From a virus (taxonomy: Duplodnaviria; Caudoviricetes), in IMG/VR virus record IMGVR_UViG_3300017912_003447, positions 1 to 33,900 of that record: DNA of 33,900 nucleotides. The stretch is one strand, 5' to 3'. Under the pieces are notes generated by a model. It did no database searches and had not been told where the DNA came from. It saw only the letters and a program-made list of their open reading frames with translations. Positions 15,100 through 19,788 of the stretch are shown here, one piece after another. Numbering within the stretch: the first letter of the stretch is position 1; the number at the start of each line of letters is the position of its first letter. A program made the position numbers and the translations under genes.

Positions 15100-15815
15100 T
15101 AGAAATCCATAAAAGATAATGTTGTCGGCCACACGTAGTTCTGATATCGATTTAAACCTGTCTCAACCACACAAGAGTTTAATTTATTTCTTATATCTAA
15201 CATTTCCTCAGTCGCGATGTGTTTTGTTGATTTGATACTATCGGTTTGATTTTCAAAGTCCTCCATCAAAGTCATTGATAAAGTATCACCATCTTCAACT
15301 ATTGTATAGCCGTATAATTCAGTCCATTGATTACTTGACGTATGTAAGTCCTCTATAACATATATGCCACCACTCCTCAAATACTTGTATAGGATTTTAA
15401 AAGATGTTTGTTGTTGTCTCATTGAGTGTCCACCATCGTCAACAATAATGTCGAATTCATCTCCATTTTGATTAATAAATTCATTTAAATCTTGAAGGCT
15501 AGATTGGTCACCTCTAAAAACAACCGACCTATTTTTGTCTCTATCATCCCAACCATTTACCATTACCATATCTCGACCTGTTCTTTTGTCGTAAACCTTG
15601 TCTTCATAAACTATTCTGTTATCTATAGCGTATACATTTGCGTTTGGGAAATAATCCAACCACATCAAATGAGAGCCACCTGTATTCAATCCAATCTCTA
15701 ATATTTTAGTAACATCATTTCTGATGCTCTCAAATTTTTTTTCATAGTGTTTAGTATAACCTAAATCAAGTTTATCACAATTATATTTTTTTGCTATTTG
15801 GTGTAAATCTAACAT
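15099..15815 (-). CDS. class I SAM-dependent (sugar O-)methyltransferase
   Basis: KYNCDK...Y..HY, ILEIG...GGSHLMWLDYFPNA, GDQS, FDIIVDDGGH, GGIYVIEDLHTS (MycE/TylE-like pattern). Confidence 0.85.
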   Translation of the reverse strand: MLDLHQIAKKYNCDKLDLGYTKHYEKKFESIRNDVTKILEIGLNTGGSHLMWLDYFPNANVYAIDNRIVYEDKVYDKRTGRDMVMVNGWDDRDKNRSVVFRGDQSSLQDLNEFINQNGDEFDIIVDDGGHSMRQQQTSFKILYKYLRSGGIYVIEDLHTSSNQWTELYGYTIVEDGDTLSMTLMEDFENQTDSIKSTKHIATEEMLDIRNKLNSCVVETGLNRYQNYVWPTTLSFMDF

Positions 15816-16567
15816 AACACATCCCTTAAGATTGATTTATTTATAAATATATTGGCTTCGTGTATCTTATTATATTTTAGCGCCTCATCAATTACAAAAT
15901 CAATATCGACATCTAATTTAACCTCGTAATCCTTAATTAAATCCTCAACGTCGAATCCCATAAATTTAGAAACTTTCGGTAAAAAGAATCCAAGAGCTTC
16001 TCCGTGTGCTATCCCATAATGACCAGTTAGTGGATAAGATAATGAATGTAATAAATTGGTGCCGGTGATTTCTATCGCCTTTCCACCAAGTCTACCTGCA
16101 TGTAAAAGATTCGAAATAGTTTTATTTTCTTTTAGTAACCTTAACCCCTCAGAGCAGTAATTTTCACTTTCTTCATTTCTTTTAATTGATGTTAGACTAT
16201 CTAAGAAATGACTGATAACGTCAAAGGTTGTATCCCTTTTAACCCTCTCTGGTAAATCGGCGTAATCAGAATTTATTTCAACCTTTTTTGGTTTAAATCT
16301 TTTTAAACTTATTTTATTACTTCCATCCCAATATACAGACCAAGATGTTTCTGATGCACCTGATGCGGTAGTTGGATAACAGATTATCGGATTCTTACAT
16401 ATTATCTTCGCGGTATCAATTACAGCTCCACCACCTATAGCAACCACCGATTCCTCCGAACCCATTTCATCCAAGATTGATTTATCGGGTGCCGAACTAA
16501 TAATTTTTTTCCTATCGAACCCTTGTAAAAAATCTTTTGTAGAGTTAGAGCAAACCAATAAGCTCAT
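15809..16567 (-). CDS. iron-containing alcohol dehydrogenase, probable phosphonoacetaldehyde reductase
   Basis: AIGGGAVIDTAK, PTTASG, metal ligands DVISH...HSLSYPLT...HGEA; follows the ppd genes; start 16567 (SD AGGA, ATGA overlap; track start 16603). Confidence 0.8.
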   Translation of the reverse strand: MSLLVCSNSTKDFLQGFDRKKIISSAPDKSILDEMGSEESVVAIGGGAVIDTAKIICKNPIICYPTTASGASETSWSVYWDGSNKISLKRFKPKKVEINSDYADLPERVKRDTTFDVISHFLDSLTSIKRNEESENYCSEGLRLLKENKTISNLLHAGRLGGKAIEITGTNLLHSLSYPLTGHYGIAHGEALGFFLPKVSKFMGFDVEDLIKDYEVKLDVDIDFVIDEALKYNKIHEANIFINKSILRDVLC

Positions 16568-17022
16568 AATAATTCCTTTATCTGTTTTGTATTTACTAAG
16601 CAATCCAAACCAACTCTATCTTTTTTACCATCATTATTGATTCTATAAATCTTATCAATTCCATAATACTCTTCACTCAACTCGGCGCTAGGAAATCCAC
16701 CGACTGATTCATGACAACCATTATCTAAAACATACACAAAAAGATTTTTTAAATTTTGTTCTTTTATCGTGTGTGTTATTCCTAAGTGCATCAATAAAGA
16801 TGCGTCACCACTAATGACCACAACATCTTTTTGAGAGTTAGCTGCTATTCCCAAACCAATACATGGTGCCAATCCCATACTACCTTGCATATAAAAAATA
16901 TTTTTATTATTAGGAAATAAATTATAAACATCTCTTGATATAAAACCTGTGTTAGTAACGTAGATAGAATCTTGACCATGCCAATGAAATATATCCTTGA
17001 TTACATCTTGCCTACTCAACAT
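16564..17022 (-). CDS. ppd: phosphonopyruvate decarboxylase, C-terminal TPP-binding subunit
   Basis: TGFISR, FYMQGSMG, GLGIA, TPP motif GDASLLMHLG...LDNGCHESVGG; ATG 17022 after GAGG SD (track start 17031). Confidence 0.85.
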   Translation of the reverse strand: MLSRQDVIKDIFHWHGQDSIYVTNTGFISRDVYNLFPNNKNIFYMQGSMGLAPCIGLGIAANSQKDVVVISGDASLLMHLGITHTIKEQNLKNLFVYVLDNGCHESVGGFPSAELSEEYYGIDKIYRINNDGKKDRVGLDCLVNTKQIKELL

Positions 17023-17392
17023 TATTATCACCTCTGATAATCATATAATTTTCATATCCTATTAATTTTAGAATGTCCTCATCAACCTCTCCCATAACTT
17101 TGTGTTGAGGTAACGTATGTCGGTGTCCAATAACTAAAAATGGATAAATACCATGAGGTATACATAGACTTGTTAAAGGGTTTATTATATTTCCTAAACC
17201 TGAATTTTGTAAGTAAACACAACTCTTTTTACCGGCTAACTCAGCACCAACTGCAATACCGATTGCCTGTCCTTCATTAGTTGCAGGTATATGTTTTTTA
17301 TCTTCGATACTAAAAATAAAATGTTTCAGTCCACTATCGGGTACACCTGTGAAAAAGTCATAATTATTTAGTATATCATTTAATTTATTCAT
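17012..17392 (-). CDS. ppd: phosphonopyruvate decarboxylase, N-terminal subunit
   Basis: [44 protein letters not shown]; directly downstream of pepM. Confidence 0.85.
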
Positions 17393-18668
17393 TTGGTATT
17401 AATTCTAAAACCTTTTTTATTGGTAGACAACCTACACTTGCCTCGTAACATCTTTTGTTATGTAATATTGATTTAGCTGTGTTCACCATAGCTGGATAAG
17501 AACTTCTTAATAAATGATTAGCGTAAATCACTATGTCCACACCTGCTTTTATTAGTTCCTCTTCTTTTACTTTATTATAAGTAGATGGGACAACCACCAA
17601 AGGAACTTTTTTCTTAACATCCTTGAATTTATCACAGAAACTTAGTATCTGACTAAAATCATTAGTTTTACTATGAATCATAATACCATCAGCACCACTA
17701 TCGATGTAAGTCTTTGCTCTATGAATGGCATCATTAACATCTTTCCCTAAAATAAAACTTTCTATTCTCGCTATTATCATAAAGTCTTTCGTAACTAATG
17801 ATTTTTTACCCTCTGATATTTTAGTAGAAAATTTATCTGGCTCATCTTGAGTTTGATTAGAGGTGTCGGTAAATAAAGAATTTCGTTTTGTTCCTATCTT
17901 ATCCTCTATTATGACAGCAGATACCCCCATTCTTTCAAGAGTTCTAACTGTATGTTTAAAGTGTTCAATCATTCCACCATTATCTAAATCCACAATCATC
18001 GGTTTTGTAGTAACGTCAAATATCTCACTTAATGTTTGACTCACGGTTGTTATATCGACATACTGATTATCAGGCTTTCCCTTAGATAAAGAATGTGTTA
18101 AACTGCTCAACCACATAGCATCAAATTCATCGTTACCAACTTTTGTTTTTTCAACTATCAAACTACTTAAACCATTATGGGCTTCTAAAACACGAACTAT
18201 AGGTTTTGAATTTATTAATCTTGTCAACATTTTTCTTCTTATATCAGGCGTTGTACCAATTTCTTTTAAATGATTATGTAACTTAGTTGATGATACCCCT
18301 TTTGTATAAGGCACATCAATTACCTTACCTCCCCACTCACTTAACTTTTTTATAACATTCTCTCTTACTTGTTTTTGTACACCCTCTTTCCAATCATCTC
18401 CATGAACAACAAAATCAGGTTTTATTTTTTCCAAATTTGGAATGTAATCTAATGTTTCTTGAGGTATTACTTTCGAAACACCACGTAAATTTTCAACAAC
18501 AATTTTCCTTTCATTATAATTTAGAGCAGGTAATCTTTTGTAGCTTGCTATCGCTGAATCGGTTAATAATCCAATTATAACATCACCGTATTTTTTTGCT
18601 TCTTTAATTATATTTAGATGTCCATGATGAATTAAATCAGCACACATTCCTATATAAACTTTATTCAA
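17385..18668 (-). CDS. pepM: phosphoenolpyruvate mutase with N-terminal cytidylyltransferase domain
   Basis: PepM signature EDKxxxxxNS ([10 protein letters not shown]), [46 protein letters not shown]-terminal [22 protein letters not shown]. Confidence 0.96.
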
Positions 18669-19788
18669 AATACCACTTCCATATTCCGTTTCGTAAATAA
18701 TTTTTTAAAACTTGTATTTCAGGATTATTGATTGGAACATTTTCCCATGTCCTATTAATAATTTTTAAATCACCACTATCTCCATATTTTCTTTCATAAA
18801 TTCTACCGACCTCCTCAAACGTTCCATAAGCTCCATTTGGTGCGCCGGGATTATGCATACAATATTGTATATATTTGTTTTCATCAATAGCCATTATTGC
18901 TGATACACTCGTACAATTATACTCACTAACAGCTGAACGACTATCCTCGGTAACGTATATTCTATCCATGTCTAAATCTGATAAAATATCGTTTGGTAAG
19001 TCCCTCTTAAATACTCTATTCAAAACAGTATTTTTAAAATCCTTGGATGCAATCTTTTTCTTTTCAACTTTTTGATTTGTAATGTTATCGGTTACACTAA
19101 TCCAAGATAAAAAAGAATCGGGTGGATTATGATTTTTTGTAATACCTTGAGGTTCACCATGGTCAGCGAATACCCAAAACAAAGAGTTTCTTTCTTGGAA
19201 GTCAATAGTTTCAATTATATCCTTAAATAACGCAGCCACATCTCTTTGCTTTCCTCTTTCAGCATCATGATAGTGATTATATTTCAAAATAATAAAATGA
19301 TTTTCATCTGATGATAATTTTTGCATACTATTTATAAAATTTTTTTCATCAACATTTCGTTGATAATCATAAAAAATGAAATCTCTAAATCTACCACATA
19401 TATCATCTGGAATCAACTTACAATCTCTAAGACCAGGCGTTGTATTGACATCACTATACATTGGCCAACACCCGATTGTATTATCATCCCCTCTTGTTGG
19501 CGGCATTGCATGTATATGTATTTTCCAATCATCGGGTAGGTGTTTAAGTAATATCTTTTCATCCCATATTTTTTTATCCTCGTCTGATAGACCTGCATAA
19601 GTGTGTGAGTGACCAATGCCTGTAGCTCTCATTTCTGATGGGCGATTTCCTGAAAACATTGAAACCATCGTATTTACTGTATCAGGTTGTGTCAGATAAT
19701 CCCCAAAATGTAAACCCTTTGATTTAAATAATTCTTCTATCTCGGGATGTCTTGGAAAGGTATCAAACAATATGCAATAAATTTTCAT
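18661..19788 (-). CDS. alkaline phosphatase/sulfatase superfamily protein with probable Thr nucleophile
   Basis: YCILFDT (metal Asp), [13 protein letters not shown] (nucleophile helix), [13 protein letters not shown]; overlaps the pepM start. Confidence 0.7.

Follow-up and report, generated by a model that had tools for sequence, protein, structure and literature searches.

Predicted Synthesis of CMP-2-Hydroxyethylphosphonate by a Five-Gene Cassette in the Glycan Island of a Tailed Phage

Cassette Layout and Enzyme Assignments

The window, as the whole stretch analyzed here is called, comprises 33,900 nucleotides (nt) of an IMG/VR-type virus record (IMGVR_UViG_3300017912_003447, about 18% complete) and carries a cassette of five open reading frames (ORFs) at 15809-19788, all on the minus strand, whose neighbors overlap by 4-20 nt. 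Read along that strand, they encode a soluble alkaline phosphatase (AlkP) superfamily protein (18661-19788, 375 amino acids (aa)), a cytidylyltransferase fused to phosphoenolpyruvate (PEP) mutase (CT-PepM; 17385-18668, 427 aa), the trimmed alpha subunit (17012-17392, 126 aa) and the beta subunit (16564-17031, 152-155 aa) of a phosphonopyruvate decarboxylase (Ppd), and a trimmed group III iron-dependent alcohol dehydrogenase (Fe-ADH; 15809-16603, 264 aa as called), a predicted phosphonoacetaldehyde reductase. The upstream sequence points to likely starts at ATG 17022 for Ppd-beta (152 aa) and ATG 16567 for the Fe-ADH (252 aa). The first-pass annotation, made from the letters of the window, had named five overlapping genes in this order, and all of these ORFs were found. 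The family and motif evidence given below indicates that the cassette very probably makes cytidine monophosphate (CMP)-activated 2-hydroxyethylphosphonate (HEP). Relative to two siblings, all five genes have ratios of nonsynonymous to synonymous substitution (dN/dS) of 0.05-0.12, similar to that of the clamp-loader gene; the cassette is under purifying selection.

Both parts of the 427-aa protein are matched in Pfam (PF01467 and PF13714), with the cytidylyltransferase at residues ~4-137 and the PEP mutase at ~146-425, which is the architecture of Fom1. The protein scores above the NCBIfam cut-off for PEP mutase (TIGR02320; 361.8 vs 319.55 bits), and the mutase domain matches PDB entry 1M1B with E 1.9e-40. 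Furthermore, it contains the motif EDK-x5-NS, a PEP mutase criterion taken from literature including passages of PMC8942020 and PMC6697681, with the motif columns invariant in 8/8 rows. In the fused N-terminal PF01467 domain the HxGH signature of cytidylyltransferases is found as HHGH. The best solved relative of this domain is the HEP cytidylyltransferase of Fom1 (5X3D, E 4e-57), as compared with E 5.2e-10 for the glycerol-phosphate enzyme TagD (1COZ). According to passages of PMC6697681 and PMC9088020, the Fom1 cytidylyltransferase produces CMP-HEP.

For the decarboxylase, TIGR03297 is the best family of both halves (alpha, E 1.7e-30; beta, E 1.5e-28), and the two-subunit Ppd 9IZ3 is their top PDB match, alpha aligning with chain A (E 2.7e-20) and beta with chain B (E 1e-30). 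The scores of 106 and 100 bits lie below the whole-protein cut-off of 312.5 bits, as is expected for the halves of a protein whose gene is split in two. The catalytic E40 and the QNSG motif of the alpha subunit, as well as the thiamine pyrophosphate (TPP)/Mg motif of the beta subunit (G75-D76, D103-N104), are invariant in 16/16 rows. Sulfopyruvate decarboxylase beta scores close to TIGR03297 (96 bits); this identity was rejected for the pair because a true PepM gene adjoins the Ppd genes.

The best NCBIfam match of the Fe-ADH is the phosphonate-associated family TIGR03405 (E 8.7e-18, 64 bits). The GGG motif and D128/H132/H186/H200 are conserved among the 19 true Fe-ADH rows, one of the 20 aligned rows being a non-homologue, and they also align with 1VHD; we take these four residues to be the Asp/His/His/His metal ligand set of group III enzymes. 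For this gene, dN/dS is 0.08-0.12. A CDP-glycerol route through glycerol-1-phosphate dehydrogenase and TagD was rejected, as these matches are far weaker than those to alcohol dehydrogenases and Fom1.

The fusion, the two Ppd subunits and the group III Fe-ADH had all been proposed in the first-pass annotation and are borne out by these matches, as is its preference for HEP over aminoethylphosphonate (AEP): the closest solved cytidylyltransferase is that of Fom1, and no AEP transaminase (TIGR03301) is found in the window of this ~18% complete contig. Only one of 28 records, G029, matches TIGR03301. That record holds an AEP version of the locus (L083:6001-12937), with an AlkP gene, a split Ppd, an AEP transaminase-like gene, a separate cytidylyltransferase, a LicD-like gene and a stand-alone PepM-like gene whose motif is non-standard. 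Methylphosphonate synthase (MpnS) is likewise absent from the window and present in 3 of the 28 records, and no B12-dependent radical S-adenosylmethionine (radical-SAM, Fom3-like) gene or epoxidase occurs among the Pfam matches of the window.

AlkP-Fold Protein as a Candidate Transferase

The 375-aa protein has no match in Pfam, PHROG or NCBIfam, PF00884 included, and a PDB profile search with its family returned only noise. Folding from the single sequence gave a predicted local distance difference test score (pLDDT) of 37, which a 79-row alignment remedied, the resulting AF2 model reaching 93.6. This model matches the folds of sulfatases, YejM and LtaS with Z scores of 23.0-19.3, the best match being VIA (Z 23.0, root-mean-square deviation 3.5, 301 aligned). 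Furthermore, D9, T37, D209 and H210 are the same in every one of the 79 rows of the alignment. The assignment to the AlkP superfamily that had been read from the sequence is confirmed by the predicted fold together with these four residues. Formylglycine-dependent sulfatases carry a C/S-x-P-x-R motif; the window protein has no Cys-x-Pro-x-Arg, only the invariant Thr37 with no arginine at +4. It shares the fold and the metal/nucleophile layout with LtaS, EptA/C, GacH, YejM, NPP and sulfatases (Z 14-23), in contrast to which it is soluble, has no membrane anchor and is 7-13% identical in sequence. It would also differ from the known enzymes of the superfamily in its donor, which is predicted to be nucleotide-activated, and it does not have the formylglycine motif.

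The genomic company of this protein points to a role in phosphonate transfer. This AlkP family was met at 149 metagenome loci, and the best 80 of them were compared. PepM and Ppd are present in 53 of the 55 loci with at least 1.5 kb of downstream sequence, and the Fe-ADH in 35/35 of those AlkP-PepM loci with at least 3.8 kb. Eight of these 80 loci encode AlkP-CT-PepM triple fusions, several have AlkP between PepM and Ppd, and a viral AlkP is fused to CT-PepM in L005. When the family is clustered at 90% identity, PepM/CT stands beside at least one member in 43 of 47 clusters. Of 26 PepM records, 13 contain the window AlkP family, five LicD and four TagF, and none combines any of these; the remaining four have other AlkP-like genes, two by Pfam and two by motif only. 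Since LicD and TagF are CMP-releasing transferases that occupy its slot elsewhere, AlkP appears to fill their role. Taking into account model, invariant residues, fusions and linkage, we regard the protein as a candidate CMP-phosphonate:glycan transferase, with the odds somewhat better than even that it attaches the phosphonate.

Viral Origin and Glycan Island

The genes around the cassette had been described as phage-like, which holds. A phage flank at 31654-33527 (minus strand) encodes a PD-(D/E)XK exonuclease, DUF1599 and a T4-type clamp-loader small subunit, with matches to phrog_69 (E 1e-24) and phrog_225 (E 5.8e-12). Both island ends have homologous, syntenic counterparts in Flavobacterium phage immuto, which is in culture; the replication end is also syntenic with the cultured Microcystis phage Mel-JY01, where PD-(D/E)XK, DUF1599 and clamp loader follow in the same order. 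In the sibling G001 (PepM 88% and clamp loader 84% identical to the window), genes for tail fibers, sheath, tube, baseplate hub and then PolB are joined by unbroken sequence to this island and its cassette. Gp23 and terminase occur on G022, and terminase and sheath on the complete genome G014. Pfam Terminase_6N matched 2/25 records and missed the PHROG-detected terminases of G014 and G021, so its blanks mean little. No cellular housekeeping gene, which would have spoken for a cellular chromosome, is present among the 51 ORFs scanned with Pfam and NCBIfam.

The first-pass annotation had advised checking that reads span island and flanks. In a possible source run, one 22.9-kb unitig covers 14001-29174 at an even depth of 15, and further pieces at depths of ~14-19 cover most of the stretch to 33789. 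Two long pieces from a second run of the source study cover 5672-20000. Most of the cassette is also recovered from an independent run of 2014, whose pieces show 0-29 differences each. The cassette comes from seawater or other marine metagenomes, which belong to 13 studies. Collectively, these findings make it practically certain that the contig is viral and belongs to a tailed phage, best read as a large, uncultured marine phage of the T4-like kind; the suggested confirmation is provided by the T4-type replication genes and by synteny, but not by terminase or capsid genes. The replication genes of siblings include one that resembles a TonB-dependent receptor, and siblings also have Mom-like DNA modification genes and pilin-like genes (L016:12443-15250, L024:5769-8498, L020:10478-11762); the receptor-like gene and the relatives on Flavobacterium and Microcystis only hint at the host.

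The cassette lies within a glycan-biosynthesis island of ~26 kb (4610-30368, minus strand), recognized by Pfam, PHROG and NCBIfam scans, which contains a GT4 pair, GT2s, GT9, epimerases, a UDP-sugar dehydrogenase, a sugar aminotransferase and methyltransferases. The GC and GC3 of the cassette match those of its flanks. The upstream border is a GT-A-like phage protein (19785-20546, minus strand, 253 aa), identified through ESM Atlas virus clusters, with weak leads to GT8/nucleotide-sugar transferases; it also occurs in siblings that have no cassette. The downstream border is a methyltransferase (15099-15815, minus strand; PF13578, phrog_21658). In 26 sibling loci the island content varies past the first GT2. 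Among 36 siblings picked by the first glycosyltransferase of the island, many of them fragments, PepM is present in two, and AlkP in the same two. All five genes are absent together from L224, L229 and L251, where the GT-A-like gene directly abuts the methyltransferase, and this junction indicates that the five genes are gained or lost at the cassette boundaries. The cassette behaves as one interchangeable "serotype" decoration within a hypervariable island.

Elsewhere in the window, no tRNA genes were found, a sigma-70 promoter scan was at chance (107 vs 108 expected) and a terminator scan was below it (3 vs 6.9 expected). The island also includes a 2-oxoglutarate (2OG)-Fe(II) oxygenase gene with no NCBIfam match (11470-12114), which could serve in tailoring of a sugar or phosphonate. 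The TOD1/MUCI70-like gene at 24126-24713 is ~35 residues shorter than its sibling copies, and the source-run contig departs from the window at 24126 (region 24027-24126); given both, the stop of this gene may be an assembly error. The left end (291-920) has long non-coding gaps and raised GC.

Distribution and Phylogeny

In the search for viral pepM and the tree that the first-pass annotation had called for, full CT-PepM occurs in 25 of the 41 viral loci returned, and 18 of 22 viral rows, the window included, form a virus-only PepM clade (SH-aLRT 95; 17 rows at 99) inside which no cellular row falls. The tree comprises 22 viral and 79 cellular rows, was built by a quick search with no bootstrap, and omits four near-duplicate viral loci and two loci that have no motif-bearing ORF. 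The four viral rows outside the clade indicate more than one acquisition of PepM by viruses. Two CT-PepM genomes are complete with terminal repeats (G014, 189 kb; G021, 48 kb), and their gene sets differ from that of the T4-like group.

The cellular set consists of the best 80 relatives, from a scan of 21 of the 64 parts of the genome collection, which are only 56-65% identical. In these loci, Ppd is one chain wherever seen (72/72), and the Fe-ADH measures 334-443 aa in 67 of 69, as against 207-289 aa in viruses; the window AlkP family is near none of the 80. The split Ppd and the trimmed viral forms recur over many contigs. The shortest Fe-ADHs, of 207 aa (L039:9381-10004 and L040:9381-10004), stop just past the last metal ligand; the PepM of these two loci has a separate origin, near Marinimicrobia rows in the tree.

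Proposed Mechanism and Acceptor

On the proposed route, PepM would convert host PEP to phosphonopyruvate, the two-subunit Ppd would yield phosphonoacetaldehyde, the Fe-ADH would reduce this to HEP, and the fused cytidylyltransferase would activate HEP as CMP-HEP. This sequence follows from the characterized Fom1, Ppd and PhpC enzymes, as described in passages of PMC6697681, PMC9088020 and PMC8942020. Thr37 of the AlkP-fold protein would then take the phosphonyl group with release of CMP and hand it on to the hydroxyl of a sugar. The acceptor would be a glycan made by the enzymes of the phage island around the cassette and carried, most plausibly, by virion proteins. We assign this full reading, from CMP-HEP synthesis to AlkP-mediated transfer onto an island glycan, a probability of roughly 0.55.

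Considered separately, it is likely that HEP ends on a glycan, while the odds that the virion is the acceptor fall a little short of even. No transmembrane-like segment was found in any minus-strand ORF of the window and no exporter among the Pfam matches, which would make the chemistry cytoplasmic. In G021 (L037:8782-14900), CT-PepM, a one-chain Ppd, three GT-A-like genes, LicD and a methyltransferase-like gene lie inside the head module, flanked by terminase/portal/head-morphogenesis genes on one side and on the other by genes that, judged only from their position and size, likely encode scaffold and capsid. Furthermore, mycobacteriophage virions are known to be glycosylated, as cited in a passage of PMC12619734. 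Consequently, the virion is ranked first, followed by the host surface on account of the GT9 and heptose epimerase genes, and by DNA, because no C5 methyltransferase is seen in five records.

Several observations weigh against this reading. As to the enzymes, the summed Ppd halves are ~95 residues shorter than cellular forms, and the Fe-ADH is ~120 residues shorter and far under the TIGR03405 equivalog cut-off (64 vs 423.7 bits); G021 has no Fe-ADH near its cassette. Terminase, portal and capsid genes are absent from the 33.9-kb window by Pfam and PHROG, and one RNA run yielded a share of 0.06 in short pieces only. As to the transferase, hydrolases (sulfatases, YejM) are among the closest AlkP folds as much as transferases are, and known AlkP-fold transferases such as LtaS and EptA take lipid donors rather than CMP donors. 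The records behind the slot pattern are fragments, all but one of the 13 AlkP-bearing PepM records belong to a single lineage, and the absence of AlkP from PepM records is weakly tested because PF00884 misses the AlkP of the window itself. The AlkP family also persists apart from PepM. In L076, L305, L307, L294 and L295, an intact AlkP with its motifs remains after a clean 2.8-kb deletion from CT-PepM to Fe-ADH (L076 junction 7177/7174). These five assemblies are ~96% identical to the cassette-bearing L028 and retain AlkP as two different alleles, and dN/dS of AlkP in this sub-lineage is 0.27-0.44 with or without the cassette. No PepM stands beside AlkP in two further clusters (L340, L341), three distant family members adjoin a stand-alone cytidylyltransferase on contigs that lack PepM, and L083 combines the window AlkP family with a LicD-like gene, the latter by motif only. 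From the persistence without PepM, L083 and the stand-alone cytidylyltransferase neighbors, it follows that the family may take other or host-made CMP/CDP donors, or may hydrolyze.

Of the alternatives, the one that survives best is that CMP-HEP is made and decorates the host surface, that is, the lipopolysaccharide (LPS) core or a lipid-linked glycan at the cytoplasmic face, so as to exclude superinfection or mask the infected cell. This would agree with the GT9 heptosyltransferase-like and ADP-heptose epimerase-like genes two to three genes upstream, with the decoration of surface glycans by cellular phosphonates, and with the common interpretation of cyanophage glycan genes as host-surface modifiers in passages of PMC12801897. 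It is nevertheless unlikely, as the island has no membrane or export genes, G021 has its genes within the head module, and the phages seem lytic, which would leave little time for surface remodeling.

Hypermodification of phage DNA by a phosphonate-bearing sugar, against restriction or CRISPR nucleases, is quite improbable. The start of the island does adjoin replication genes and DUF1599, which is nucleotide-modification-associated, siblings add Mom-like genes, the PepM-like and Ppd-like genes of Vibrio phage Va2 lie around nrdAB, and glucosylation of DNA by phage glycosyltransferases is possible according to a passage of PMC12619734. However, a C5 methyltransferase was found in 0/5 records, the complete G014 among them, in a search whose positive control worked; a TET/JBP search gave 0/5 as well, but its silent control makes that result uninformative. 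Moreover, the sibling thymidylate synthase resembles ThyX by eye rather than a hydroxymethylase, and ~25 sugar genes would far exceed the need of known DNA glycosylation.

It is also hardly probable that AlkP hydrolyzes or edits CMP-HEP or a phosphonate ester, with another island or host enzyme performing the transfer, or that the pathway ends at free HEP or at a small phosphonate. The top fold matches (sulfatases, YejM and phosphonate monoester hydrolase), the presence of AlkP with no adjacent PepM in three informative clusters and the deletion lineage, and its coexistence with LicD in L083 would fit such a role, against which stand the slot complementation with LicD and TagF, the fusion to an activating domain and the Thr nucleophile in place of the sulfatase motif. 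Activating HEP only to hydrolyze it would moreover be futile unless it were tailored, and B12 radical-SAM genes are missing from the window.

Finally, a cellular or chimeric contig, or trimmed genes that are decaying remnants, is a largely refuted and very improbable explanation, since the missing terminase and capsid genes, the common CT-PepM/Ppd/Fe-ADH operons of cellular genomes and the clean deletions in siblings are outweighed by the clamp loader, the tail genes of G001, synteny, read coverage, the virus-only clade, low dN/dS, the 51 ORFs with no housekeeping gene, matching GC/GC3 and the recurrence of the trimmed forms on many contigs.

Comparison with Known Systems

The early fosfomycin pathway of Streptomyces wedmorensis (Fom1, the Ppd Fom2 and a PhpC/FomC-type Fe-ADH) shares the fusion and the predicted CMP-HEP route with the window, which differs in having no Fom3-like radical-SAM or epoxidase matches, a split and trimmed Ppd, an Fe-ADH ~120 aa shorter, and a location in a phage glycan island, next to a gene for an AlkP-fold protein. 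Cellular clusters for HEP-bearing surface glycans (for example, the Stackebrandtia HEP exopolysaccharide and the Prochlorococcus and SAR11 phosphonoglycan islands) have the same three activities beside glycosyltransferases; in the window, by comparison, Ppd is two chains, the Fe-ADH is shorter and the AlkP family is present. The islands of vB_FspM_immuto (Immutovirus) and Mel-JY01 have syntenic ends (PD-(D/E)XK, GT4 pair and GT2, 36-48% identity), and in immuto a terminal GT2 and HNH are also matched. Both islands are shorter and have no PepM match, neither phage being among the 22 GenBank phage records matched.

The first-pass annotation had considered the pathway generally known from cellular organisms. 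In a literature search outside which most subscription journals lay, no publication describing how a tailed phage makes phosphonates was found, but virus-encoded phosphonate synthesis has precedents in a giant-virus cluster and in an annotated gene of Vibrio phage Va2. Li and Horsman 2022, in passages of PMC8942020, describe one giant-virus metagenome-assembled genome (MAG) whose phosphonate cluster, GCF 881, has a Ppm-Ppd fusion and an AEP transaminase; according to the same passages, neither 364 huge phages nor the RefSeq viruses yielded a Ppm. In GCF 881, too, a virus-encoded PEP mutase stands beside sugar genes, and a viral phosphonoglycan was proposed there. In contrast to that single MAG contig of a eukaryotic virus, the window represents a tailed phage, the HEP branch, CMP activation and many contigs. 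Among 50,697 GenBank phage records, the full-length PepM matches are two unannotated 7-8 kb fecal fragments. The cultured phage Va2 (MW073017.1) has a GenBank-annotated, divergent PEP mutase with six residues between EDK and NS; this gene and a Ppd-like gene flank nrdAB (L260:95-1195 and 4896-6200), and they are possibly nucleotide-directed. The chemistry is known; the searchable papers describe neither its carriage by a phage nor the trimmed enzymes nor their exchange as a module.

Related Phage Contigs and Significance

In three related records (G018, G019 and G020), an MpnS-like gene lies directly upstream of CT-PepM with LicD nearby (L034:932-2323, L035:8596-9987, L036:2921-4303), and G018 and G019 have late-sigma, tape-measure or baseplate matches. 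The MpnS-like gene matches PDB 6B9S with E 7e-76 and has the His/Gln/His triad; in the alignment, its Phe and Ile at the signature positions match 6B9S, not 6B9R, a signature that we take to mark MpnS, as Tyr/Gly would mark HEPD. These genes would be a case of phage-encoded methylphosphonate synthesis. B12-binding radical-SAM genes lie near the cassette at L034:6185-7708 and L038:12938-14458, with family members in L035, L036 and L040, and their products could methylate CMP-HEP as Fom3 does. Two further loci (L013:9252-11780, L043:1100-2933) lack PepM and carry LicD, a trimmed Fe-ADH and a cytidylyltransferase that stands alone, and L013 has a PhnY-like dioxygenase upstream, which suggests the use of scavenged phosphonates.

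More broadly, it is a tentative and rather doubtful proposition that several unrelated marine tailed-phage lineages cap their own glycan coats with HEP, AEP or methylphosphonate in the manner of serotypes, and that a soluble AlkP family with a Thr nucleophile moves CMP-phosphonates onto sugars. The AlkP protein offers a tangible, soluble candidate enzyme for what follows CMP activation, a step called enigmatic in the abstract of PMC6697681, and the proteins of 126, 152 and 252 aa form a minimal enzyme set that is easy to express. Phage-encoded phosphonate may be an environmental source: if the proposal is true, viral lysis would feed marine phosphonate pools, and the relatives bearing MpnS, which tie phages to methylphosphonate, would supply the precursor of aerobic ocean methane. 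As a recurring, selected phage pathway, the cassette indicates that viruses may use phosphonate chemistry for their own coats.

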